64,000 bases of DNA. Origin: a virus. Of the stretch, positions 30,709 through 52,379 are shown piece by piece. The stretch is from the IMG/VR virus record IMGVR_UViG_3300021093_000007; one strand, 5' to 3'. Every line of letters starts with the position of its first letter. The stretch's first letter is position 1. The position numbers and the translations under genes were made by a program. The notes under the pieces were generated by a model. The model did not search any database and was not told where the DNA came from. It saw nothing but the letters and a program-made list of their open reading frames with translations.

Positions 30709-32355
30709 ATGGCAAAATTGTTTGGATTCTCTATTGAGGATAGTAATAAAAAACCATCAGGATTGGTCTCCCCCGTTCCTCAGAATAATGAGGACGGGGC
30801 CGACTATTATCTTACTAGTGGATTTTTTGGTTCTTATGTAGATATTGAAGGTGTTTATCGAAGTGAATTTGATTTAATCAAACGTTATAGAGAAATGGCA
30901 CTTCATCCTGAAGTGGATGGTGCAATTGAAGATATTGTCAATGAAGCGATTGTTAGTGATACTAACGATAGTCCAGTTCAAATTGACCTTGATAATTTAA
31001 ATGCCAGTGACGGACTTAAAAAAAAGGTAAGAGAAGAATTTAAACATATTTTAGAATTAATGGACTTTGATAAAAAGTGCCATGAAATTTATAGGAATTG
31101 GTATGTTGATGGTAGACTTTATTATCACAAACTTATTGATTTAAAAAATCCTCAAGACGGAATTCAAGAATTAAGATATATTGATGCCTTAAAAATGCGT
31201 CATGTTAGACAAGCATCTAAAGGCAATAAGAATGATGCAAGACTTGGACCAAATGGAGAAAAGGATCCGATGGATTCTGGATTCCCAGATATCCAAGAAT
31301 ATTTTATTTACAATGCGTCAGCAAATCAGATAGGAACAATCAATAATAGTTCAAATCAAGTTAATCAGGGAACTAAGTTTTCAAAAGATTCTATTACTTA
31401 TTGCACATCTGGATTAGTTGACAGAAATAAAAATCTAACTCTTTCATATCTTCATAAAGCAATTAAATCTCTCAATCAACTCCGTATGATTGAGGATTCT
31501 CTTGTTATCTATCGTTTATCAAGAGCACCAGAGAGAAGAATTTTTTATATCGACGTAGGTAATCTCCCCAAAATTAAAGCGGAACAATATCTCCGTGATG
31601 TTATGATGCGTTATCGTAATAAACTAGTGTATGATGCTAATACTGGTGAAATTCGTGACGATAAAAAATATATGAGTATGCTTGAAGATTTTTGGTTGCC
31701 AAGAAGAGAAGGTGGTAGAGGAACTGAAATCTCCACTCTTCCTGGAGGTCAAAATTTAGGGGAGCTATCTGATATTAAATACTTCCAAGAAAAATTATAT
31801 CGTTCTTTAAATGTCCCATCTTCTAGAATTGGTGGTCAGGAAGGATTTAATCTTGGAAGATCTTCAGAAATTTTAAGAGACGAACTTAAATTTACTAAAT
31901 TTGTTGGTAGATTAAGAAAGCGTTTTTCCAACATGTTTAATGACATGTTAAGAACTCAACTTCTTCTTAAAAATATTATTACTCCAGAAGATTGGGAGTT
32001 GATGGAAGAGCATATTCAATATGACTTCTTATATGACAATCATTTTGCAGAATTAAAAGATGCGGAATTAATGACAGAAAGACTGAATATTGCAGCAACT
32101 GCAGAACCATATATTGGTAAATATTACTCACAAGATTATGTAAGACGTAAGATTCTTCGTCAAACTGATGAAGAAATTATTGAACAAGATAAACTTATTA
32201 AGAAAGAAATTGCTGCTGGAATCATTCCAGATCCAAACGCACCTATTGATCCAGCAACTGGTCAACCACTCGCAGCAGATCAAAATCTTGGGGCACCAAT
32301 TAACGAACCAAACTTGGATAGTCAAAGTAAAACTGTAGAACCGCCACAAATTTAA
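30709..32355 (+). CDS. gp20: Portal vertex protein gp20
   Basis: LRMIEDSLVIYRLSRAPERRIFYIDVGNLPK, EDFWLPRREGGRGTEISTLPGGQNLG. Confidence 0.97.
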   Translation: MAKLFGFSIEDSNKKPSGLVSPVPQNNEDGADYYLTSGFFGSYVDIEGVYRSEFDLIKRYREMALHPEVDGAIEDIVNEAIVSDTNDSPVQIDLDNLNASDGLKKKVREEFKHILELMDFDKKCHEIYRNWYVDGRLYYHKLIDLKNPQDGIQELRYIDALKMRHVRQASKGNKNDARLGPNGEKDPMDSGFPDIQEYFIYNASANQIGTINNSSNQVNQGTKFSKDSITYCTSGLVDRNKNLTLSYLHKAIKSLNQLRMIEDSLVIYRLSRAPERRIFYIDVGNLPKIKAEQYLRDVMMRYRNKLVYDANTGEIRDDKKYMSMLEDFWLPRREGGRGTEISTLPGGQNLGELSDIKYFQEKLYRSLNVPSSRIGGQEGFNLGRSSEILRDELKFTKFVGRLRKRFSNMFNDMLRTQLLLKNIITPEDWELMEEHIQYDFLYDNHFAELKDAELMTERLNIAATAEPYIGKYYSQDYVRRKILRQTDEEIIEQDKLIKKEIAAGIIPDPNAPIDPATGQPLAADQNLGAPINEPNLDSQSKTVEPPQI

Positions 32356-32357
32356 TT

Positions 32358-33020
32358 ATGAATCGTTATCATAGATTTTTGAATATTGGAGATTACATTC
32401 CTAATATTGATACTTCAAAGTATCAAACTGAGGGTATGAGATGGCCAGAATTCCATAAGCAACTTCAATTTAAAGACCTAGGTAATGATAAAATTTTACC
32501 TTGGTTAAATAGTTTAGGATTCACATCTCATTGGATAGAATTTTTCTATACCCCACCACACGATGATGGTGTTATACATTCCGATAACGTATATTATGCT
32601 GATTGGGCAAAGTTGATATTCCAATTTGGTGCTAAAGGAAGCACTATGAGATGGTGGACATCTGACATGGTTTTGAGAGTAAGCACTAGTGCGGAACAAG
32701 TTTGCTCAACAGTTATTCCAGAACGTAGTCAATATACTGTTGGAGATAGAACTAATGATCATTATCATGGTCAAGTTTTAGTTAGTAGAGAAGAATACTG
32801 CAAAAAAGAATATGAAGTTGAGATAGGGTCTTGCGGATTAATTAATGTTGGACCTTTACATAGTTCTTATAATCCAACAGATGATAAAAGATTTACGGTG
32901 ACTATTGCTCTAATTGATAAGAATAAAGATTACGAGCATCGTATTTTATGGGATGAGGCAGTAGAGGCATTTAAACCCTACATAGTTGATTCTTCAATAG
33001 ACCTTTGCGCCGTAAAATAA
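32358..33020 (+). CDS. Putative 2OG-Fe(II) oxygenase / cupin-fold protein
   Basis: FFYTPPHDDGVIHSD (HxD) ... GPLHSSYNPTDDKRFTVTI (distal H and R-x-T) pattern of double-stranded beta-helix oxygenases; starts 2 nt after the portal stop. Confidence 0.55.
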   Translation: MNRYHRFLNIGDYIPNIDTSKYQTEGMRWPEFHKQLQFKDLGNDKILPWLNSLGFTSHWIEFFYTPPHDDGVIHSDNVYYADWAKLIFQFGAKGSTMRWWTSDMVLRVSTSAEQVCSTVIPERSQYTVGDRTNDHYHGQVLVSREEYCKKEYEVEIGSCGLINVGPLHSSYNPTDDKRFTVTIALIDKNKDYEHRILWDEAVEAFKPYIVDSSIDLCAVK

Positions 33021-34743
33021 ACACGGTATGAGGATCGTTTTTATCGAAGGATTTAAATTCAGTATCTACTTTGTATGTCGCGTTTTCACATGTTAGATAA
33101 AATGGATATTCAGTTTTTTCATCAAAGATAAATGCACGTTGTAAAGATATAATATCTGTTGTGATTGAGTTTAATGTTTGTGTTGCCTTTTCTACAAGTT
33201 TAAAAATTTGGTCCTTATTGGTAAACATAAAGGCAAAACTTCCAGCATGTAGAGTATGCCCATGCTTGCCTTTATTTAATATTTTTCCAGTTTTCATGTA
33301 ATGATTTACTGCAGATTCAATTTCCCTATAGTGCTCCCCTATTACACCAGAATCTGATTTTATGAATTCAAATAAAGTATCATAAAATTGACGATAAGAT
33401 ATATTTAAACTTTCATAATAATGTTTAGCAACTATTTGTGTATATCCAGCAATATGGAATTGAACAATTAACCACCCATACATATACGCTTGAATTAATT
33501 CATCATTTGACATTGTATTAGTTTCCGAGATTAACTCGATAGTTTCTGTAACACCATCATAATCTCGATCATTTCCGAAAGATACATAATCTTCCGCTTT
33601 GATTGTTTTTATCCCATATACTTCTCTTGAGGTTGCACTGTTTAATTCAGTATCTCCAAACATTTGACAGAACCAGACATCAATTGATTCATGCTGACCA
33701 CACTCAAGAATTTTAGAAAATCCTTCCTTCCAAGTATCTAAAGTTTCTTCAGGCAATCCAAGAATCAATTCAGTATAAGTTTTTACCCCATACTCTTTAC
33801 TTTTATCAATTTGTTCAGATATTTTATTAATACTCATATTCTTTCTTTTAATCGCTTTAAGTGTTGGTTCATTCATAGTCTGCACACTTAAAGTTACACC
33901 TCTACTAATATCTCCAAGTATTTTTGCAATTTCAAAAATTACTTCAGTAGAGTTTTTAGAATATTGGATGTTTATTGCTTCAAGGTTACCCTCATCTGCT
34001 GCTTCTCTGAATATCTTTGCAATTTCCAAGTCGCGTTCTTTAAACATACCAAAGTTTGCATCAGCATTAAAAATAAATCCAACATTATTCTTTCTAGCCC
34101 AATCAATATCATCTCTAACTCGTTGAATATCAAAGTGTCTAACTTTTGTATATGTTAATCCACCCCAGTCACAATAAGTGCATCTATGAGGACAACCTCT
34201 ATTAGTTTCCATAGTCATTGCCCATAAAACACCTGGATTATCTTCAATAATTCTATCAAATACTCCAATCTGATAAGGACTTGGAAAATTTAAATCTTCA
34301 ATTCTTTTTTTTGCATAGATTCTATCAATTGTTTCGCTGTTGTTTACTTTCCTTAAAAAATCTAAAAATGCTTCCTCACCCTCAGATACAATAATACAGT
34401 CGATAAAATCATAATCATTTAATCTATGAGTTGCTTGAGGACCACCAAATTCAATAATACAATTTGGATATTTTTCTTTGATTAGTTTTGCTACATGTAA
34501 GTTATATTGTTCATTCCAAACATAACAACTAAATGCACAAATTGCAGGATTATCTAACCTATCAATTAAATCTTCTGGGTCTTCTCTTCGGAATATAAGA
34601 TCTTTTAATTCATAGGAATCTTGTATATCTTTAAATTGAGAACAATATGCCCACAAACATCCTACGCTATAAGGTAACCAATAAGTATCTTCTTTTCTAA
34701 TCTCAACCGCATATTGTGGTTGAAACATATAAAGGTTTTTCAT
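32971..34743 (-). CDS. Cobalamin-binding radical SAM enzyme (paralog B)
   Basis: N-terminal B12-binding-type domain (FSCYVWN...FGGPQ...IVSEGEEAF), ETNRGCPHRCTYCDWG (CxxxCxxC), DANFG, ELILGLPEET. Confidence 0.88.
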   Translation of the reverse strand: MKNLYMFQPQYAVEIRKEDTYWLPYSVGCLWAYCSQFKDIQDSYELKDLIFRREDPEDLIDRLDNPAICAFSCYVWNEQYNLHVAKLIKEKYPNCIIEFGGPQATHRLNDYDFIDCIIVSEGEEAFLDFLRKVNNSETIDRIYAKKRIEDLNFPSPYQIGVFDRIIEDNPGVLWAMTMETNRGCPHRCTYCDWGGLTYTKVRHFDIQRVRDDIDWARKNNVGFIFNADANFGMFKERDLEIAKIFREAADEGNLEAINIQYSKNSTEVIFEIAKILGDISRGVTLSVQTMNEPTLKAIKRKNMSINKISEQIDKSKEYGVKTYTELILGLPEETLDTWKEGFSKILECGQHESIDVWFCQMFGDTELNSATSREVYGIKTIKAEDYVSFGNDRDYDGVTETIELISETNTMSNDELIQAYMYGWLIVQFHIAGYTQIVAKHYYESLNISYRQFYDTLFEFIKSDSGVIGEHYREIESAVNHYMKTGKILNKGKHGHTLHAGSFAFMFTNKDQIFKLVEKATQTLNSITTDIISLQRAFIFDEKTEYPFYLTCENATYKVDTEFKSFDKNDPHTVFILRRKGLLKNQLCRV

Positions 34744-36545
34744 AATTTTACCATTGTATTTTTTGTAAGATATTTTCTTTTAATTACAAATAAATCATAT
34801 CTTTCATCTTCTGTTCTTTCATTCTCTATAGAATATTGAGTATCTTTTTTCTCCCAAGTATCTAAATCAAAAGGTAATACCTCTACATGAGGATAATTTA
34901 TGTTTGGATCATACACAAATTTTCTTTGGATGTCAAAAATACTTTTTTCTATATCAAAAGTGTTACGTGCAAAATCTTCAATAAAGTCTAATATTTTATC
35001 TTTATTTTCAAATCTTGATAAAGTATCATTTGGCATACCAACACCCAGTCCATGTCCACTTGAATGATTAGAAGGGACTTTTCCAGTATCAAAATATTCA
35101 GTTATTGCTTTTAAGTATTCTCTAAATTCAGTTCCCAAAAATCCAGAGTCATTCATTGTATATTCATATAAAGATTCATAAAATTTTCTATAACTTACTC
35201 CCAATACATATCGACAATACTTAGATAAAATTTGTGTATATCCAACATAATGAAATTTAATTGTTATCCAAGAAAACATATGGGCATCAAAAAAGTCTTG
35301 TTTAGACATCGTATCAGTCTCACAAATTAATTCAATGTATTCTTTTGTATTATCAAATTCATCATTACAGAACGATATGTAATCTTCTGCTTTAACAGTT
35401 TTTATACCATAAGTCTTTCTACTAAATTCACTACCTAACTCAGCATTTTCAAATACTTGACAGAACCAAGAGTCTACAGAAAAATGTTGTCCGTTTTCCA
35501 TTAATAAATCAATTCCATCTTTCCAAGAATCCACTGTTTCTTCGGGCATTCCTAAAATTAAATCCGTATATAATTTTACATTATGTTTTTTTGCCAATTC
35601 AACATGTCCAGCAATATCTTTTACGTGAAGATTCTTTCTTTTGATCGCTTTAAGTGTTGGCATATTCATACTTTGAACACTTAAAGTGACACCTCTTCTA
35701 GAATATTCTCCCATAATCTTTGCAATTTCAAATGAGGCTTCATTTGAATTTTTTGAGTATTGTAAATCTATATTATCTAACATTAAACTATTTTCTGCTG
35801 CTTTACGTAGCATCTTTGCAATTTCAATATCACGTTCTTTAAATATTCCAAAATTTGCATCCGCACATAAAACATAAGCAACTTTATGTGTTCTTATCCA
35901 TTCAATATCTTCAGCAATTCTTTCCAATTCAAATTTATTAATTTTACTCATAGTTGTACCACCCCAGTCACAAAAAGTACATCTATGTGGACAACCCCTG
36001 TTGGTTTCTAAAATTGCTGCCCAAATAACATCTGGATTTTTTTTAGATAACCAATCAAAAACTCCAGATTGGTAAGGACTTTTAAAATCTAAAGAATCTA
36101 TTCTTTTTCTTTCATGGACTTTGTTGATTGAATTACCAGTATTAATGCTTCTCAATAATTCTAAAAATGCTTCTTCACCTTCACCAAGGATAACACAATC
36201 AATGAATGGATTTTTTTCCATCATTTTTGTAGTTACTTGAGGACCACCAAATTCAATAATGCAGTTTGGGTATTTTTCTTTTATCAATTTAGCTAAGTAT
36301 AAATTATACTGCTCATTCCATAGATAACAACTAAATGCACAAATTGTAGGATTATCTATTTTTTCTAGTAACTGTTCTGGATTTTCTCTTCTAAAAATAA
36401 TATCTTTTAATTCAAATGATTCTTCTATATCTTTAAACTGTTTACAATAACTCCATAAACAAGAAACACTATAAGGCATCCAATAATTTTTAGTGTCCCT
36501 TACATTAACGCTATATTGTGGTTGAATGAAGTATATATTTTTCAT
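34740..36545 (-). CDS. Cobalamin-binding radical SAM enzyme (paralog A)
   Basis: FSCYLWN...FGGPQ...LGEGEEAF, ETNRGCPHRCTFCDWG, DANFG, DLILGMPEET; 4-nt overlaps with both neighbours. Confidence 0.88.
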   Translation of the reverse strand: MKNIYFIQPQYSVNVRDTKNYWMPYSVSCLWSYCKQFKDIEESFELKDIIFRRENPEQLLEKIDNPTICAFSCYLWNEQYNLYLAKLIKEKYPNCIIEFGGPQVTTKMMEKNPFIDCVILGEGEEAFLELLRSINTGNSINKVHERKRIDSLDFKSPYQSGVFDWLSKKNPDVIWAAILETNRGCPHRCTFCDWGGTTMSKINKFELERIAEDIEWIRTHKVAYVLCADANFGIFKERDIEIAKMLRKAAENSLMLDNIDLQYSKNSNEASFEIAKIMGEYSRRGVTLSVQSMNMPTLKAIKRKNLHVKDIAGHVELAKKHNVKLYTDLILGMPEETVDSWKDGIDLLMENGQHFSVDSWFCQVFENAELGSEFSRKTYGIKTVKAEDYISFCNDEFDNTKEYIELICETDTMSKQDFFDAHMFSWITIKFHYVGYTQILSKYCRYVLGVSYRKFYESLYEYTMNDSGFLGTEFREYLKAITEYFDTGKVPSNHSSGHGLGVGMPNDTLSRFENKDKILDFIEDFARNTFDIEKSIFDIQRKFVYDPNINYPHVEVLPFDLDTWEKKDTQYSIENERTEDERYDLFVIKRKYLTKNTMVKL

Positions 36546-37450
36546 AACGTAGATATAAATTTATTATGTTGTTCAATTCCTCTTTTATAAAAATATTTAT
36601 CGTCCCATCGTTTAATATCTCGTTCCATTAGATTATCATTTAATTTTCCAAAATTAAAAAAATCATTCAAGCTAAAATTATCTTTATCGTTTTCCCACCA
36701 TTCTTTATATGCTTCATAGCAACAAATAAAAGATTTCATTGGATACCATTCTGTAATGTGAGTTGAACCTTTGAAAAAAGGATTACACGGAATCAATGGT
36801 ATTGTATAAGTATTCCCAGTTTGACATAAAAAATAATCTGGAGTTCCTGCAAGATCATTAAAAAAATAACCATCACCTATTCCAGATTCTCTATTAATAT
36901 AAATTGAGTTTGCCACAACTCCAGTAAATTTATATTTACCATCAACATAAAAAAGTTCTAAAAGTTTTTCAACATGAGTTCTTTTTAATAATACTGGACC
37001 AAGAGAATAATTACTCTGAACTGGATGTAAATAAAATCTAACTATGTCTGGACATTCATGCCCCAATTGTATAGCATCCCAATCATAAGGAAGATATGTT
37101 AGTAAATTGTCCCAAGTAAAGTGCCAGTAATCGATAAAACTTAAATCATAATCATCTTCCATTACTATGACATAAGGTTCATTTGTTTCAAAATACCAAT
37201 TTTTTAAAGTATCAATTAAAAAATAATTATACGCCAAACATCTTTTAGATGCTAATTCAGAGTGAACATTTAATATTTTTTCCTCTAAGTTCTTTGGAAA
37301 TCCAAATGGCATCAAAATTTTTGTAAAGGTGATTCCATAAAACTTAAATTGATTTTCCATGTATTTTTGTCTTTTTACTTCATTTTCCAAAGTAAAATAA
37401 AATACATGAGGAAAGTTTTTTAATTTATCACATCCCATAATCAAATACAT
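36542..37450 (-). CDS. Glycosyltransferase family 25-like protein
   Basis: N-terminal YFTLENEVKRQKYMENQF, IVMEDDYDL, WHFTWDNLLTYLPYDWDAIQL; matches the GT25 (LgtB/Lex2-like) pattern of phage GTs. Confidence 0.7.
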   Translation of the reverse strand: MYLIMGCDKLKNFPHVFYFTLENEVKRQKYMENQFKFYGITFTKILMPFGFPKNLEEKILNVHSELASKRCLAYNYFLIDTLKNWYFETNEPYVIVMEDDYDLSFIDYWHFTWDNLLTYLPYDWDAIQLGHECPDIVRFYLHPVQSNYSLGPVLLKRTHVEKLLELFYVDGKYKFTGVVANSIYINRESGIGDGYFFNDLAGTPDYFLCQTGNTYTIPLIPCNPFFKGSTHITEWYPMKSFICCYEAYKEWWENDKDNFSLNDFFNFGKLNDNLMERDIKRWDDKYFYKRGIEQHNKFISTL

Positions 37451-37463
37451 TTTACTCGTTCTG

Positions 37464-37470
37464 TATTTAT
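37464..37470 (-). promoter_or_regulatory. Minus-strand late promoter box (ATAAATA) for the GT25/radical SAM operon
   Basis: Plus strand TATTTAT; the minus strand reads aATAAATA-cagaacgagtaaa-ATG (13 nt to the GT25 start at 37450). Confidence 0.65.
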
Positions 37471-37471
37471 T

Positions 37472-37478
37472 CTAAATA
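37472..37478 (+). promoter_or_regulatory. Late promoter box (CTAAATA) restarting head genes
   Basis: Back-to-back with the minus-strand box, 1 nt apart. Confidence 0.65.
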
Positions 37479-37502
37479 CTAGAGTAATTCATGAGAATAA
37501 CA

Positions 37503-37661
37503 ATGGAAGAACTTCTAGATATGATTGTTGGTGATGAAGCACCATCTGCAATCTCTGATAAGATTAAAGACTTACTGTATACTCGCTCAGCTGAAAAAAT
37601 TGAAGTGTTGAGACCTTCAGTATCAAATTCAATGTTTAATGCTGCTACAGATGCAGAATAA
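37503..37661 (+). CDS. Small acidic protein at the gp67 (prohead core) position
   Basis: Not in the ORF track; MEELLDMIVGDEAPSAISDKIKDLLYTRSAEKIEVLRPSVSNSMF...; in-frame alternative ATG at 37491. Confidence 0.75.
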   Translation: MEELLDMIVGDEAPSAISDKIKDLLYTRSAEKIEVLRPSVSNSMFNAATDAE

Positions 37662-37701: not shown

Positions 37702-37968
37702 ATGATGATTACTAAAATTGTATCTACACAACAAGATACTGCAATTACTGCTGGAACAGCATCAAGTATTAGTGATGCCACAGCTGTTCGTTTGTATAAC
37801 AATACTGTAGGAGTAGTCACTGTAGGAGTAAGTTCTGCAGTTGGTGCTGCATCTACTAGTTATTTTGCAATGCCTGCAGGGTCTGTTGAATTTTTGGCAA
37901 AACTTCCAACTGATGTTATTTGGTCATCATCAGCAATTAGAGCAAACAAAGTAGCATTCACAAACTAA
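37702..37968 (+). CDS. Small hypothetical virion-associated protein upstream of gp21
   Basis: Preceded by two late boxes (ATAAATA 37671-37677, CTAAATA 37679-37685); Ala/Ser/Thr-rich beta protein; stop 1 nt before gp21. Confidence 0.7.
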   Translation: MMITKIVSTQQDTAITAGTASSISDATAVRLYNNTVGVVTVGVSSAVGAASTSYFAMPAGSVEFLAKLPTDVIWSSSAIRANKVAFTN

Positions 37969-37969
37969 A

Positions 37970-38623
37970 ATGAAACTCATCAGAGAAGAGATCGAAAAGG
38001 TTGAAGTTATCACCGAGAGCATTGGTGGTAAAAAGCAAATGTATATCCAAGGAGTCTTTCTCCAAAGTGAGATGGTTAATCGCAATGGTAGAATGTATCC
38101 ATTCTCCATTATGGAAAGAGAAGTAAAAAGATATACAAATGATTATGTAAAAAAAGGTAGAGCATTAGGTGAACTCGGACACCCTGATGGTCCCACTGTA
38201 AATCTCGACAGAGTATCCCATAAAATTACTGAACTAAAGCAAGACGGTAATAACTTCGTAGGTAAAGCACAAATTCTGCATACTCCAATGGGTAAAATTG
38301 CAGAAGCACTTCTTAAAGATGGAGTAACTCTCGGCGTTTCTTCTCGTGGTATTGGATCATTAAGAGAAAATATCAAAGGTGGTTATAAGGAAGTTGGTGA
38401 AGACTTCATGCTTGCAACTGCAGCAGATATTGTTGCAGATCCATCAGCACCTGATGCTTTTGTTCAGGGAATTATGGAAGGAAAAGAGTGGGTGTGGGAT
38501 GGTGGAATTCTCCGTGAGAAGATTGCAAATCAAACCAGACAAAGAATTGAAGATCTTTCTAGAAGAAGAGAACTAGAAGAGCACAAGTTGAATTTATTTA
38601 ATGACTTTTTAAATTCACTTTGA
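37970..38623 (+). CDS. gp21: Prohead core protease gp21
   Basis: MKLIREE, NRNGRMYP, RALGELGHPDGPTVNLDRVSH, LGVSSRGIGS, DIVADPSAPDAFV. Confidence 0.96.
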   Translation: MKLIREEIEKVEVITESIGGKKQMYIQGVFLQSEMVNRNGRMYPFSIMEREVKRYTNDYVKKGRALGELGHPDGPTVNLDRVSHKITELKQDGNNFVGKAQILHTPMGKIAEALLKDGVTLGVSSRGIGSLRENIKGGYKEVGEDFMLATAADIVADPSAPDAFVQGIMEGKEWVWDGGILREKIANQTRQRIEDLSRRRELEEHKLNLFNDFLNSL

Positions 38624-44415: not shown

Positions 44416-44445
44416 TTGATTCTTTTTGTATAGTAGTGTTATAAT
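44416..44445 (+). promoter_or_regulatory. Sigma70-type promoter for gp55
   Basis: TTGATT, 18 nt, extended -10 TGtTATAAT (44437-44445). Confidence 0.65.
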
Positions 44446-44470
44446 TTCAACAATTAATACAGTAATTTTT

Positions 44471-44965
44471 ATGGGTATCCAACCAGTGCCTAAAAGAAAG
44501 AGATCAATTCACTACGTTAATAACAAAGAATTTCTTTTAGCTTTGATTGAGTATAGAAGGCAACTTAGTTTGGCTCAAGAACGGGGAGATCCAAGACCAC
44601 AGATTACAAACTATCTGGGCGAATGCTTTTTAAAGATTGCAACACATTTATCATTCAAACCAAATTTTGTCAACTACATTTTTAAAGATGACATGATTTC
44701 TGATGGTATTGAAAATTGTGTTATGTATATCCATAATTTTGATCCTGAAAAGTCTCAGAATCCATTTGCATATTTTACGCAAATTATACACTACGCCTTT
44801 TTACGTAGAATTCAAAAAGAGAAAAAGCAGTTAGAAATTAAAAATAAAATTTTAGAAAGAACTGGATTTGATGAGGTTTTCTTTGATGATAACCTGATTG
44901 ACGGTATGAATTATTCTGACTATAATTCTATCAAGGACAACATTCATTCCAAATCTAGGTATTGA
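44471..44965 (+). CDS. gp55: Late-transcription sigma factor gp55
   Basis: HYVNNKEFL, YLGECFLKIATHLS, DMISDGIENC, NPFAYFTQI; ATG 44471 preferred because the track's TTG start lies inside the promoter. Confidence 0.95.
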   Translation: MGIQPVPKRKRSIHYVNNKEFLLALIEYRRQLSLAQERGDPRPQITNYLGECFLKIATHLSFKPNFVNYIFKDDMISDGIENCVMYIHNFDPEKSQNPFAYFTQIIHYAFLRRIQKEKKQLEIKNKILERTGFDEVFFDDNLIDGMNYSDYNSIKDNIHSKSRY

Positions 44966-46279: not shown

Positions 46280-47978
46280 AAAAATTCGCTACAAAAACTT
46301 TTTAAGCACAGGTAATCAATTTACCGAAATTGACTTGGCGAAGTCACCAACTACTTTAATCATTGGTAACAATGGATCTGGGAAAAGTACGATCCTTGAT
46401 GCATTGACTTTTTCATTATTTGGTAAATCTTTTAGAGGAGTTAACAAACCACAATTGATCAATTCTGTAAATGAAAAAGATTGTGTTGTTGAAATTGAAT
46501 TTAAAATAGGATCTAATAGTTGGAAAGTTGTTAGAGGACTTAAACCAACAATCTTTGAAATTTATAAAAACGGCGAACTTTTAAATCAAGAATCTGCTAG
46601 TAAGGATCAGCAAACTTGGTTAGAGGGAATTGTTTTGAAAATGAACTATAAGTCATTTACTCAAATTGTTATTTTGGGTAGTAGTAACTTTGTTCCTTTT
46701 ATGCAATTAGCAGCAGCTACTAGAAGAGAAGTCATTGAAGATCTTTTAGATATTAAAATCTTTTCTTCAATGAACTCTGTATTAAAAGATCGAGTTAAAA
46801 CTTGTAGAGATGAAATTAAAAATTTAGAATATAAAAGAGAGTCTATTCAAGACAAACTTAACATGCAACAAAGTTTTATTGAACAGATTGAAAATATTGG
46901 AAAAAAAGATATTCAAAATAAAAATCAAGTAATTAAAAATATAAGACAAGAAAATGAAAAGTTACTAGTTGATTCTCTTTCTTTGGAAGATACGTTAGTT
47001 CAAAAACAAGAACAATTAGTAGATTTTTCTGGTGCAACTGATAAACTTCGTAAACTTGGTAATCTAAAGGGAAAACTATCTCAAAAAATTACAACAGTAA
47101 TTGAAGACCACAAGTTTTTTACTAACAATACGGTTTGCCCAACTTGCACTCAATCTATTGAAGAAGATTTTAGAATAAATAAAATTAGTGACGCCCAAAA
47201 TAGAGCAAAAGAGTTGCAGTCTGGTTATAAAGAACTAGAGGAGGCAATTAAAGAGGAGGAAGATCGAGAGCGTCACTTTACTTCACTATCTAAAGAGGTA
47301 ACTAACCTAACGCATGAAATTTCTCAAATCAATACTAAGATCTCTGGATACCAAAGACAAATCGGAGATCTTGAACAAGAAATTCAAACTATTACCGATC
47401 AACTTAAAAACAGAAATACTGAACACGAAAAGTTAAAGGAATTAGAAGATCAATACGAAGAATTGCGTAAAGAGACTGATTCTAAAAAAGATCTTCTAAT
47501 TAACTATAATTTTGTATCTGATTTACTGAAAGATGGTGGAGTAAAAACTCAAATCATTAAAAAGTATCTACCTGTAATTAATACTCAGGTAAACAAATAC
47601 TTACAAATGATGGAGTTCTTTATTAATTTTAAACTTGATGAAGAATTTAATGAGTCAATTGAATCTCCGATTCATGATGATTTTTCTTACACTTCTTTTA
47701 GTGAAGGTGAAAGAATGCGTATTGACTTAGCACTTCTTTTTACTTGGAGAGAAATTGCAAAACTCAAAAATTCTTTGAACTGTAATTTAATTATATTTGA
47801 TGAAACATTTGACTCTTCTCTAGATACATTTGGAACTGATGAGTTTATGAAAATTATTCGTTATGTAATTAAGGATGCAAATACTTTTGTTATCTCACAT
47901 AAAGAAGGAATGCGAGATAAGTTTGCTGAAGTTTTAAAATTTGAAAAAATTAAAGGATTTAGTAAGGTATCATCATGA
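46266..47978 (+). CDS. gp46: Recombination ATPase subunit gp46 (Rad50/SbcC-like)
   Basis: GNNGSGKST, zinc hook CPTC, FSEGE signature, IFDE Walker B. Confidence 0.96.
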   Translation: MILFEKIRYKNFLSTGNQFTEIDLAKSPTTLIIGNNGSGKSTILDALTFSLFGKSFRGVNKPQLINSVNEKDCVVEIEFKIGSNSWKVVRGLKPTIFEIYKNGELLNQESASKDQQTWLEGIVLKMNYKSFTQIVILGSSNFVPFMQLAAATRREVIEDLLDIKIFSSMNSVLKDRVKTCRDEIKNLEYKRESIQDKLNMQQSFIEQIENIGKKDIQNKNQVIKNIRQENEKLLVDSLSLEDTLVQKQEQLVDFSGATDKLRKLGNLKGKLSQKITTVIEDHKFFTNNTVCPTCTQSIEEDFRINKISDAQNRAKELQSGYKELEEAIKEEEDRERHFTSLSKEVTNLTHEISQINTKISGYQRQIGDLEQEIQTITDQLKNRNTEHEKLKELEDQYEELRKETDSKKDLLINYNFVSDLLKDGGVKTQIIKKYLPVINTQVNKYLQMMEFFINFKLDEEFNESIESPIHDDFSYTSFSEGERMRIDLALLFTWREIAKLKNSLNCNLIIFDETFDSSLDTFGTDEFMKIIRYVIKDANTFVISHKEGMRDKFAEVLKFEKIKGFSKVSS

Positions 47979-48715
47979 AGGTTTTAGTCACTGGACATAG
48001 AGGATTTATTGGAAGAAATGTATTCGCTGATTGGCAAACCACCCACAATCATTTGGTTGTGGGAATGGATTTTCCGTATGATATTGATAATTTTGTTGGT
48101 GATGATTATGATTTGATTATTCATTTGGCAGCATTTGCAAATATCAGAGAAAGTCTAGAGAATCCTCAAAAGTTTTATGAGAATAATGTAGTAAAGTCTA
48201 AAAAGATATTCGACTGGTGTAGAGAGACAAATACTAGACTTTTATATGCTTCCTCTAGTGCTGTAGAGGAAGATTATTGGGAGAATCCTTATGCTATGAC
48301 AAAGTGGATTAATGAACAAATGGCACCACCCAACTCTGTTGGGATGAGATTTACCACTGTTTATGGTCCAGACAGTCGTCCAGATATGATGTATAGGATG
48401 CTTGAAGATAAAACTGCAACCTACGTAACCAATCATAAAAGAGATTGGATTCATGTTAATGATGTGTGTCGAGCAATTCGTTATCTTGCTAGTAGTGAAA
48501 TCTGTGGACCAGTTCCTGTTGGATCTGGTAAATCTGTCTATGTTAAAGATCTTGCAGAGAAGATGGGGATGGGTCACTTGCCAGTTAAAGAACTGACCCC
48601 AGGTGAAAGACAAGATAATGTGGCAGATACTATAATCCTAACTAGTATTGGATGGTTCCCAACCATTAACGTTCTGGACACGATCAATGAACACCCCAAA
48701 TTGGCAACATCATAG
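47975..48715 (+). CDS. NAD-dependent nucleotide-sugar epimerase/dehydratase
   Basis: VTGHRGFIG, HLAA, YASSS, YAMTK (YxxxK), RFTTVYG, RDWIHVND. Confidence 0.9.
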   Translation: MKVLVTGHRGFIGRNVFADWQTTHNHLVVGMDFPYDIDNFVGDDYDLIIHLAAFANIRESLENPQKFYENNVVKSKKIFDWCRETNTRLLYASSSAVEEDYWENPYAMTKWINEQMAPPNSVGMRFTTVYGPDSRPDMMYRMLEDKTATYVTNHKRDWIHVNDVCRAIRYLASSEICGPVPVGSGKSVYVKDLAEKMGMGHLPVKELTPGERQDNVADTIILTSIGWFPTINVLDTINEHPKLATS

Positions 48716-51245: not shown

Positions 51246-52379
51246 ATGCCTCGCAAACTTGCTTTGAAAGACGAACAACTGATTGCTTCCATTCAAGAAC
51301 TTTATGGTTCTGAAATTACTTCTGGTGATCTTAGGGGTTTTTGTGCTTCTCGCGGTTTGAATTATCAGACTGTGACTCGTCGCCTTGAACAATATAAGTC
51401 TGCTCGTGGTCGCTGGAATCTTGAAGTGACTCAGGAGCGAGTTGAAGAGATTGAGCGCACCTTCCAATCACCTGCTGCTCTTCCTGCTATCGAACAAAAT
51501 CTTATTCCCGACAAAGATGATACCTTCGTCCAGTTTGGTAATTTTAAAGATGTTAAGCGTATTATTCAATCCAATCTTTTTTATCCGACGTTTATTACGG
51601 GTTTGTCGGGTAACGGTAAAACGTTCAGTGTGGAGCAAGCTTGTGCTCAACTCAAGCGTGAACTCATTCGGGTAAACATTACGATTGAAACTGATGAAGA
51701 TGACCTTATTGGCGGTTTCCGTCTTGTTGATGGTGCCACTGTTTGGCACAACGGTCCAGTTATTGAAGCCCTTGAGCGAGGAGCGATCCTGCTACTTGAC
51801 GAGGTTGACCTTGCCTCCAACAAAATCCTTTGTCTACAATCCGTGCTAGAAGGTAAGGGTGTGTTCCTGAAAAAGATCGGTCGTTTCGTAAAACCTGCTG
51901 CTGGTTTCAACGTGATTGCCACTGCTAACACCAAAGGTAAGGGTTCTGATGATGGTCGCTTCATCGGCACCAATGTGCTCAACGAAGCATTCCTTGAACG
52001 CTTCCCTGTGACCTTTGAGCAGTCCTATCCTGCTCCTGCTACTGAGCAAAAGATTCTGGAAGGTATTGCTCTGGACCTTGGTGTGGAAGACCGTGACTTC
52101 TGCAAGCGTCTGGTGGACTGGGCGGATATTATCCGCAAGACCTTTTACGATGGTGGTATTGATGAAATCATCAGCACCCGTCGCCTGGTTCATATCATCC
52201 GCGCCTATAGCATCTTCCAAGACAAGGCAAAGGCAATCCAAGTGTGTGTTAATCGTTTTGACGATGAAACCAAACAGTCCTTCCTGGAACTGTATGACAA
52301 GGTTGATGCTGACTTCAAGATGCCTACGGGGGTATCAAATGAAGTTCTTCCTAATATTGACGAACCCAGTCCTTTCTGA
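51246..52379 (+). CDS. cobS: CobS-like (MoxR-family) AAA+ ATPase
   Basis: GLSGNGKT Walker A, LLLDEVD Walker B, ATANTKGKG, NEAFLERF, ISTRRL. Confidence 0.9.
   Translation: MPRKLALKDEQLIASIQELYGSEITSGDLRGFCASRGLNYQTVTRRLEQYKSARGRWNLEVTQERVEEIERTFQSPAALPAIEQNLIPDKDDTFVQFGNFKDVKRIIQSNLFYPTFITGLSGNGKTFSVEQACAQLKRELIRVNITIETDEDDLIGGFRLVDGATVWHNGPVIEALERGAILLLDEVDLASNKILCLQSVLEGKGVFLKKIGRFVKPAAGFNVIATANTKGKGSDDGRFIGTNVLNEAFLERFPVTFEQSYPAPATEQKILEGIALDLGVEDRDFCKRLVDWADIIRKTFYDGGIDEIISTRRLVHIIRAYSIFQDKAKAIQVCVNRFDDETKQSFLELYDKVDADFKMPTGVSNEVLPNIDEPSPF

Follow-up and report, generated by a model that had tools for sequence, protein, structure and literature searches.

The window, the whole stretch of DNA that was analysed, consists of 64,000 nt of the IMG/VR virus record IMGVR_UViG_3300021093_000007, from an uncultured T4-like phage of the cyanomyovirus (Kyanoviridae) type. 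In its head module an island of 5.1 kb separates the portal gene gp20 from the open reading frame (ORF) at the gp67 position and the prohead protease gene gp21. The core of the island is a pair of genes for methylase-like proteins of the cobalamin (B12)-type radical S-adenosylmethionine (SAM) class, here termed rSAM-A and rSAM-B. Reading from the portal gene (30709-32355, plus strand; Pfam Portal_T4, E 9e-193; PHROG 213), which forms the left boundary, the island begins 2 nt past the portal stop codon with ORF220 (32358-33020, plus strand). This accessory gene encodes a protein of 220 aa that has the fold of a 2-oxoglutarate (2OG)/Fe(II) oxygenase in its AlphaFold2 (AF2) model and an HxD…H…R motif, and its 3′ end overlaps that of the following gene convergently by 50 nt. 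The following gene is rSAM-B (32971-34743, minus strand), which is portal-proximal (H1); after it come its paralogue rSAM-A in the second position (34740-36545, minus strand; H2) and the gene for a glycosyltransferase (GT) of 302 aa (36542-37450, minus strand), an accessory that is the first gene of the operon and is assigned as a GT25-like GT-A enzyme from PHROG 2835 and its fold. The GT/rSAM-A and rSAM-A/rSAM-B junctions are overlaps of 4 nt each. The late-promoter-like box AATAAATA (37464-37471, minus strand), recognized by its motif and its conservation, lies 13 nt 5′ of the GT start codon, and abuts a divergent late box CTAAATA (37472-37478, plus strand) back to back. The latter is 12 nt 5′ of a 56-aa ORF at the gp67 position (37491-37661, plus strand; phrog_14164, E 2.9e-21), the right boundary of the island, and the gp21 protease gene lies beyond this (37970-38623, plus strand; Pfam Peptidase_S77, E 3.7e-40).

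Among cultured phages, the closest portal proteins come from members of the Kyanoviridae that infect Synechococcus and Prochlorococcus (S-SM2 with 75.9% identity, then S-SCSM1 and P-TIM68). In S-SCSM1 and P-TIM68 a small ORF directly trails the portal gene, within about 40 nt, so the 5.1 kb is an insertion relative to these phages. GT, rSAM-A and rSAM-B are the sole minus-strand genes among 56 non-overlapping ORFs of the window (chosen greedily), and the G+C content of the island (0.27-0.32) is below that of the flanking head genes (0.33-0.48). An earlier note on this DNA had described an island inserted into the head module, splitting it by about 5.1 kb, with the only minus-strand genes of the window coupled to each other by 4-nt overlaps and an oxygenase-like gene coupled to the portal gene. 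That layout and its coordinates stand, including the insertion when judged against the cultured phages; the one correction is the 50-nt convergent overlap between ORF220 and rSAM-B.

The two rSAM proteins are 51% identical to each other, and both match Pfam Radical_SAM (PF04055; E 1.4e-15 for rSAM-A and 2.8e-15 for rSAM-B). The B12-binding domain (PF02310) scores 36.3 bits in rSAM-A, above the cut-off of 32.1; in rSAM-B it scores 25.1 bits, which is below the cut-off, yet this protein aligns throughout with rSAM-A. The CX3CX2C motif takes the form CPHRCT[FY]C in the paralogues (CPHRCTYC in rSAM-B), and the cluster cysteines (C185, C189, C192) show no variation among 27 homologues. The best solved relatives of rSAM-A are TokK (PDB 7kdx; phmmer E 1.7e-77 over residues 22-490) and CysS (9n1b; E 5.8e-35), and the N-terminal Rossmann-type region aligns with the cobalamin domain of TokK. 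In the HMMER alignment W76 of the window protein (CYLWN) falls on W76 of TokK (CYVWN) and W194 (CDWG) falls on W215, the equivalents of both being invariant in 27 homologues. Trp76, located under the corrin, and Trp215 of TokK are common to ThnK and CysS and are not found in other characterized B12 radical SAM methylases (10.1101/2021.07.10.451909). Arg280, which anchors the substrate in TokK, is replaced by leucine at the aligned position of rSAM-A; the protein is therefore not a carbapenam methylase, and a different substrate is expected. The best NCBIfam match is to the KedN5-family C-methyltransferases (NF033712), but at 179.1 bits for rSAM-B and 184.8 bits for rSAM-A the scores are far under the cut-off of 700, and the proteins are not members of that family. 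The identification of two B12-binding radical SAM enzymes made in the earlier note thus holds, with profiles that place both as TokK/CysS-like and outside the KedN5 cut-off. The pair would thus represent a new branch of the TokK/CysS-like iterative C-methylases that acts on a different substrate. Tandem rSAM paralogues are also common in cellular loci, and one marine metagenome holds a natural fusion of two TokK-like modules in a single protein of 1283 aa (P0196, L099:8001-11852). The cluster around it contains four further genes for B12 rSAM proteins, a pair of GT2 genes and one DegT aminotransferase gene. This fusion suggests that paired rSAM enzymes work together.

There is no close homologue of the rSAM proteins or of ORF220 in 50,697 phage records, and homologues of both are plentiful in metagenomes. 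Those with at least about 48% identity occupy the same site, between the portal gene and the gp67-position ORF or gp21, wherever enough flank is present. Such same-site cassettes occur in dozens of contigs from IMG/VR, ENA (contigs of 253-307 kb), NCBI, TARA and Logan, with flanking tail-tube and portal proteins 65-96% identical to those of the window, and an index of public assemblies lists one orthologue with 92% identity in 88 of its blocks. A chimeric assembly, which the earlier note had raised, is excluded, as dozens of contigs that are independent of one another show this arrangement. The portal proteins of cassette-bearing contigs are nearly all 78-96% identical to that of the window (65% in a single contig, L223), which fits an uncultured clade as the bearer of the cassette.

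The content of the site is variable. The window has GT, two rSAM genes and ORF220; other contigs have GT and two rSAM genes (L110, L115, L116), two rSAM genes with ORF220 and an extra ORF of 118-141 aa (L112-L114), two rSAM genes only (L014-L016, L124), or GT with one rSAM gene and ORF220 (L211, L213, L214). In a further group (L186-L189) the four-gene set is joined by a third rSAM gene beyond GT, in the order ORF220, rSAM, rSAM, GT, rSAM; this third protein is divergent, with 27-38% identity to those of the window. The complete relative G001 (246.5 kb) holds two rSAM genes only at the head site, and has no ORF220 homologue anywhere in its genome. The portal-proximal rSAM-B is kept in every head-module architecture seen, and the presence of the second or third rSAM gene, GT and ORF220 varies between lineages. 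The core is thus formed by rSAM genes, to which ORF220 and the cassette GT are accessories. The earlier expectation that the genes would be found together elsewhere is correct for the cassette as such, which recurs at the same site, and fails for an obligate set of four.

In a FastTree phylogeny of 86 rSAM proteins those of the head module form one clade (support 100). Within it the second-position (H2) proteins form one branch (support 99), and 14 of the 15 portal-proximal (H1) proteins another (support 96), with that of L134 unresolved beside it; both clades are older than the split of the lineages. The topology indicates one old duplication, with the second copy (rSAM-A) evolving faster.

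The box AATAAATA agrees with the T4-type late consensus TATAAATA at 7 of 8 positions. ATAAATA is depleted in the window about 2.5-fold (14 copies observed, compared with 34.9 ± 6.0 expected from dinucleotide-preserving shuffles), which suggests selection against stray late promoters. Half of the copies (7/14) are no more than 45 nt upstream of a gene start on the same strand, including those of the portal, scaffold and baseplate-side genes. On the minus strand there are two copies in 64 kb, both located inside the cassette. In all lineages examined, the corresponding intergenic region keeps the back-to-back arrangement TATTTA(N1-3)ATAAATA, even where the cassette proteins are only about 45-60% identical to those of the window and the flanking proteins just 50-90% identical. 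The gp55-like late sigma factor (44426-44965; phrog_234, E 5.5e-66) and the gp45 clamp are both encoded in the window. The cassette is probably transcribed late, from gp55-type boxes, and we regard this predicted timing as well supported; the late box that had been noted 13 nt from the operon ATG is confirmed, and extends across lineages.

The second minus-strand ATAAATA (36594-36600), located 48 nt 5′ of the rSAM-A start codon, may be a late promoter internal to the operon. Of the GT-bearing lineages that were checked, most have [A/C]TAAATA 23-48 nt 5′ of rSAM-A (5 nt in L123). The site coincides with the codons GAT AAA TAT of the GT motif W-D-D-K-Y-F, of which W, K, Y and F are invariant. 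Since coding and promoter constraint are inseparable there, this box stays ambiguous, and it was dropped as a proven second promoter. Sigma-70 promoters and terminators are not enriched, and no terminator was found inside the cassette. One near-consensus sigma-70-type promoter (TTGACA-17-TATGAT, 11/12 positions; 34908-34936, minus strand) lies inside rSAM-A, about 165 nt before the start of rSAM-B; it could give an independent, possibly earlier, rSAM-B transcript, or could be a chance occurrence in AT-rich DNA.

The ratio of nonsynonymous to synonymous substitution rates (dN/dS), calculated for the window against the L007 lineage, is 0.075 for both rSAM-A and rSAM-B, 0.10 for ORF220 and 0.26 for GT, compared with 0.048 for the portal protein and 0.11 for gp23; dS is saturated and the values are rough. 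The rSAM genes are under strong purifying selection. These data bear on whether the island might be a passenger without a current role for the phage, such as a recently acquired or decaying moron. Its G+C content below that of the flanks and its highly variable composition would be expected of such an element, but not the dN/dS of 0.075-0.10 with saturated dS, paralogue clades that predate the split of the lineages, a conserved late box, and ORFs that are intact in dozens of contigs. Conservation has already largely refuted the passenger reading, which we consider extremely improbable.

The GT matches PHROG 2835 ('glucosyltransferase', E 3.8e-28) and is 26-35% identical to GT25 genes of cyanophages (35% to S-SCSM2R_307, and 26-29% to the others). 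It has no Pfam match at all, and none to PF01755 even at E values up to 5; its paralogue S-SCSM2R_303 (28.6% identical, E 1e-32) does reach PF01755, with 31.9 bits against a cut-off of 24, so that the link of the GT to this family is transitive only. The DxD motif (MEDDYDLS) is invariant in 16 GT orthologues. There is no sequence match in the PDB. The AF2 model, which has a predicted local distance difference test (pLDDT) score of 77.7, finds its best folds by Foldseek in Mimivirus R655, human COLGALT1 (GT25) and beta-1,4-galactosyltransferase (E 6.5e-7 to 1.7e-5, template modelling (TM) score about 0.45). Seven GT25-like paralogues are encoded in G001 outside the head cassette, together with three epimerases; an array at 201.5-206.6 kb holds six of the seven. 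The best of the seven paralogues is 44% identical to the window GT, the same level as the GTs in the orthologous position of other lineages, and the cassette GT is therefore a member of a phage GT25 paralogue family. The assignment to GT25 in the earlier note survives as a GT25-like GT-A fold with GT25 paralogues, but not as a Pfam GT25 match of its own.

Three independent neighbourhood surveys point to sugars as the probable rSAM substrate. The first concerns the sister group of the head-module clade, which comprises single-copy viral genes about 50% identical to it (support for the fork 92). One of these, in L127, overlaps a gene for an NAD-dependent sugar epimerase/dehydratase and is located two genes after a fragment of a DegT-type aminotransferase gene; another, P0195, trails a DegT gene (a faint match), a gene of the PNP_UDP_1 nucleosidase family and an NTP_transferase gene (a weak match). 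The second survey covers 133 neighbours of 27 further viral relatives with 34-51% identity. The most frequent are Epimerase/GDP_Man_Dehyd (11), DegT (10), RmlD (9), GTP cyclohydrolase I (8) and other radical SAM genes (8). The third covers 82 neighbours of the 12 closest cellular relatives, which are 26-38% identical and come from Alpha- and Gammaproteobacteria, Clostridia, Pelagibacteraceae, Methanoperedens and Nitrosopelagicus. Here Epimerase (9) is accompanied by GDP_Man_Dehyd, RmlD, Polysacc_synt_2, NeuB, GHMP kinases, NTP_transferase, TylF, transketolase-type subunits and GT2. The nearest relatives of the rSAM genes thus sit in operons for nucleoside diphosphate (NDP)-sugars, and a sugar or glycan would be the substrate with a likelihood of around one half. 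The location of the fusion P0196 among GT2 and DegT genes and the membership of the cassette GT in the phage GT25 family are in line with this. An origin as a host-derived auxiliary gene was rejected, as no cyanobacterial locus is among the best 80 of 466 cellular ones, the top match having 38% identity.

Two observations on individual viral loci may be added. The PNP_UDP_1 gene in the operon of P0195 (L098:1441-2130) belongs to the methylthioadenosine/S-adenosylhomocysteine (MTA/SAH) nucleosidase family, and its product could remove the inhibitory by-products 5′-deoxyadenosine and SAH of these methylases. In L127 (5967-9896) and other class-2 viral loci, the sugar genes are followed by genes for GTP cyclohydrolase I, a phosphoribosyltransferase, a SnoaL-like protein and, as the second of its kind, a distant B12 rSAM protein of 687 aa.

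The relatives also give some purchase to two other kinds of substrate. The rSAM enzymes might tailor a small molecule or lipid, methylating a host metabolite, pigment, lipid or secondary-metabolite-like compound with a late benefit to the phage. All the characterized close relatives (TokK/ThnK, CysS and KedN5) are natural-product methylases, and some of the viral relatives adjoin genes for GTP cyclohydrolase I, SnoaL, thioesterase, halogenase or lipase. The cassette itself is without carrier-protein, nonribosomal peptide synthetase or polyketide synthase genes; GT is the commonest co-resident gene, and sugar genes are the commonest Pfam families near the relatives. We judge this possibility to be improbable. 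Alternatively, a base substituent or DNA-linked sugar might be methylated or extended shortly before packaging, in a hypermodification of phage DNA or of its nucleotide precursors. The earlier note had taken late timing to argue against DNA modification, but late expression is compatible with it, since T4-like phages glycosylate their DNA and the mom gene of phage Mu is a late gene. GTP cyclohydrolase I, other rSAM genes and PP-loop-type enzymes near some viral relatives are moreover reminiscent of 7-deazaguanine pathways. Against this, we know of no B12-type rSAM enzyme that acts on DNA, there is no DNA-modification gene, such as one for a hydroxymethylase, kinase or DpdA-like protein, in or adjoining the cassette, and the GT is GT25-like rather than of the T4 alpha- or beta-glucosyltransferase type. 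Modification of DNA is on balance decidedly improbable.

ORF220 has no Pfam, PHROG or NCBIfam match. Its AF2 model (pLDDT 87.7) is a double-stranded beta-helix, for which VIA-align gives proline 3-hydroxylase (1e5r) as the top match with Z = 8.9, followed by matches with Z = 8.5 and 8.0, and also NO66, AspH, FIH and AlkB homologues. Nearly all the top matches are 2OG oxygenases, with Z values that are modest. H74, D76, H168 and R178 are invariant in 43 homologues, in keeping with the 2OG signature of an HxD…H triad and a basic residue, R178, about 10 positions past the distal histidine. In 2OG oxygenases the basic residue at this distance binds the C5 carboxylate of 2OG. The oxygenase-like gene with its HxD…H..R motif that the earlier note had described is upheld by both the motif and the modelled fold. 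Distant homologues (25-56% identical), often in tandem pairs, are present in IMG/VR contigs L242-L260, where there is no rSAM gene within the roughly 5 kb fetched on each side; this oxygenase-like family thus extends beyond the cassette.

The folds of ORF220 and the GT bring in, as their best argument, a direct post-translational modification of virion or prohead proteins, in essence the model of the earlier note, where ORF220 would hydroxylate a side chain, the GT would glycosylate it and the rSAM enzymes would C-methylate either a side chain or the attached sugar. The cassette lies in the head module under late boxes; COLGALT1 and Mimivirus R655, among the best folds of the GT, are hydroxylysine galactosyltransferases; and the best folds of ORF220 are mainly hydroxylases of amino acids or proteins (proline 3-hydroxylase, NO66, AspH and FIH). 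Class B rSAM enzymes that methylate proteins exist, PoyC and Mmp10 being C-methylases of amino-acid side chains. Yet ORF220 and the GT are both dispensable, G001 lacking the two at the site, and the nearest relatives of the rSAM enzymes are in NDP-sugar operons and not beside peptide substrates. The fold matches are modest (TM about 0.45, Z ≤ 8.9). A collagen-like acceptor was discarded, since there is no run of five or more G-X-Y repeats in the 19 window ORFs tested, most of which are structural. Taken together, we consider modification of this kind to be unlikely.

The chemistry of the family gives the basis for a mechanism. One SAM methylates cob(I)alamin, and a second SAM yields the 5′-deoxyadenosyl radical, which removes a hydrogen atom from an sp3 carbon that is not activated; methylcobalamin then passes its methyl group to the resulting substrate radical, and relatives of TokK methylate the same site one to three times (10.1101/2021.07.10.451909). 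We propose that the island is a clade-conserved tailoring cassette, in which the TokK/CysS-type rSAM pair carries out late C-methylation of a sugar or glycan built by the phage, a reading we hold about as firmly as we doubt it. The substrate of rSAM-A and rSAM-B would be an NDP-sugar, or a glycan-bound sugar, made by the phage GT25 and NDP-sugar machinery, and the two paralogues might act at different positions or in successive methylation steps. The cassette GT would install or extend the glycan, ORF220 would contribute an optional hydroxylation, and through the gp55-type boxes the reactions would coincide with the assembly of heads. At a late stage of infection the product could then become a decoration of the host envelope or of a virion protein. 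Of these two acceptors the virion protein is slightly favoured, and the virion as the final acceptor is doubtful. In its most specific form, the proposal has particles or the envelope of the dying host decorated late with sugars carrying C-methyl or longer alkyl branches through iterative B12 radical chemistry; this is tentative and rather unlikely. The methyl-transfer activity, the sugar substrate, the timing and the acceptor are what we infer from the sequences and their context.

Compared with the pathway in the earlier note, in which hydroxylation, glycosylation and methylation followed one another, the gene identities persist but not a single obligate three-step pathway, given that G001 has two rSAM genes at the site and no ORF220 anywhere, and that other lineages are without GT or have one or three rSAM genes. 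Virion proteins as the target, also suggested there, stay hypothetical, the phylogeny and neighbourhoods favouring a sugar as the first candidate for the rSAM substrate.

Several points weigh against methylation of a phage-built sugar. The cassette-bearing phages are all uncultured, with activity and expression predicted from sequence. The sister-group relatives are only about 50% identical and the cellular relatives at most 38%, and transfer of the substrate by homology is weak as a consequence. The characterized close relatives TokK, CysS and KedN5 act on carrier-tethered small molecules rather than sugars, and the substrate-binding Arg280 of TokK is not kept. GTP cyclohydrolase I near the viral relatives (8/133) hints at other chemistries. 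In relatives the cassette is at least 30 kb from the GT25 array, and cultured phages with GT25 arrays do without it. Picocyanobacteria make pseudocobalamin, so that acceptance of this cofactor by the rSAM enzymes is a caveat.

Other genes of the window have a less direct relationship to the cassette. Its structural genes include those for the tail sheath, tail tube, portal gp20, protease gp21, scaffold gp22 and major capsid protein gp23, and elsewhere there are genes for UvsY/UvsW, the gp55-like factor, the gp45 clamp, a cobS-like protein and a nucleotide-sugar epimerase. The epimerase gene (47975-48715, plus strand) overlaps a gp46-like gene by 4 nt. It had been put forward as a supplier of the sugar donor, but it is not specifically linked to the cassette, and a dedicated role was rejected because orthologues with 74-76% identity are present in cultured cyanophages without the cassette; it is in the same place in phage Bellamy. 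The cobS-like AAA+ gene (51246-52379, plus strand; phrog_249 'porphyrin biosynthesis', E 6.5e-139) shares the window with two B12-dependent-type enzymes and may be relevant to cobalamin supply; cobS-like genes are common in cyanomyoviruses generally. The 56-aa ORF was considered as the precursor of a ribosomally synthesized and post-translationally modified peptide and rejected: it is 55% identical to gp37 of S-SCSM1, a phage without the cassette, and belongs to the general family phrog_14164, and is therefore not a cassette-specific substrate. The 88-aa ORF at the gp68 position (37702-37968) is 96% identical in L004 and just 47% in L001 and L010, in which the portal protein, protease and rSAM proteins are nonetheless 92-97% identical to those of the window. 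A small gene of the head module, next to the cassette, thus seems to have undergone allelic replacement.

The rSAM pair is fixed at one head-module site in a widely sampled clade of uncultured cyanomyoviruses, and forms a compact new branch within the iterative TokK/CysS methylases, a group of biotechnological interest. GT, the oxygenase and a second or third rSAM gene are gained and lost as modules, a natural experiment through which each step could be assigned. If alkyl-branched sugars are indeed made, these would be the first radical SAM/cobalamin enzymes in phage morphogenesis, and the fitness of an abundant clade of lake and ocean cyanophages would be tied to the pseudocobalamin and iron-sulfur supply of the host. 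Infection of the ocean's main phototrophs would then carry a new demand for B12, iron and SAM. A C-methylated glycan on the virion or host envelope would represent phage surface chemistry of a new type, and could have a bearing on adsorption, superinfection exclusion, grazing or immune-type recognition.

Characterized class B radical SAM methylases are mostly from antibiotic, cofactor and lipid pathways, and we know of none with an assigned viral role. Full-text searches of the literature brought up no account of B12 radical SAM proteins being encoded in the head modules of cyanophages, nor a paper on the cassette as a whole. The view of the earlier note that the system is undescribed is in agreement with this, and the combination of phage glycan-tailoring islands with TokK-like methylases, and its setting, appear not to have been described previously.

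The cassette can be compared with four known systems. The pairing of a 2OG/Fe(II)-type oxygenase with a GT25-type enzyme resembles the LH3/COLGALT1 pair that acts on collagen hydroxylysine, and COLGALT1 is among the best folds of the GT. In contrast to that pair, ORF220 is not a lysyl hydroxylase by sequence, the window structural proteins have no collagen-like repeats, and the rSAM core can do without ORF220 and the GT. Virus-encoded systems of virion glycosylation offer a second likeness. In Mimivirus and the chloroviruses, virion proteins carry glycans added by virus-encoded GTs, in which methylated or amino sugars may occur, and the capsid and tail tube of mycobacteriophages are reportedly glycosylated too (Freeman et al. 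2023, cited in PMC12801897). As in these systems a GT is located beside structural genes, and the cassette GT folds like Mimivirus R655. The known methylations of virion glycans in them are O- or N-methylations by ordinary SAM methyltransferases, and to our knowledge no B12 radical SAM C-methylase takes part in any of them; for the cassette phage, virion glycosylation is hypothetical.

The islands of cyanomyoviruses that contain GT25, NDP-sugar and 2OG-oxygenase genes (S-SCSM2R ORFs 298-310, and GT25 in P-SSM2) are closer, the cassette GT being a paralogue of theirs. Islands of the S-SCSM2R type likewise combine genes for GTs, 2OG oxygenases and aminotransferases with one radical SAM gene. They differ in being located in a variable region and co-directional with their neighbours, unlike the head-module cassette, and their radical SAM protein is of a small SPASM/maturase type (266 aa) that is not B12-dependent, unlike those of the cassette. 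Their genes have been filed under cell-wall synthesis/modification and antibiotic synthesis, with the role left unsettled (PMC12801897).

The closest likeness of the rSAM proteins themselves is to TokK, ThnK and CysS. They share with these an N-terminal Rossmann cobalamin domain, a CX3CX2C radical SAM core and a C-terminal helical domain that can be aligned to TokK residue 511, together with invariant equivalents of Trp76 and Trp215. TokK and ThnK alkylate C6 of carbapenems and CysS extends an alkoxy group of cystobactamids, both as iterative C-methylases, and the tandem arrangement of the cassette paralogues is like that of ThnK, ThnL and ThnP. The similarity to TokK is a remote one, with Arg280 replaced, and the proteins are well separated from the KedN5 family (179-185 bits against 700). 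The setting is also different, for the cassette lies in a phage head module together with a glycosyltransferase, and not, like TokK and CysS, in an antibiotic gene cluster.

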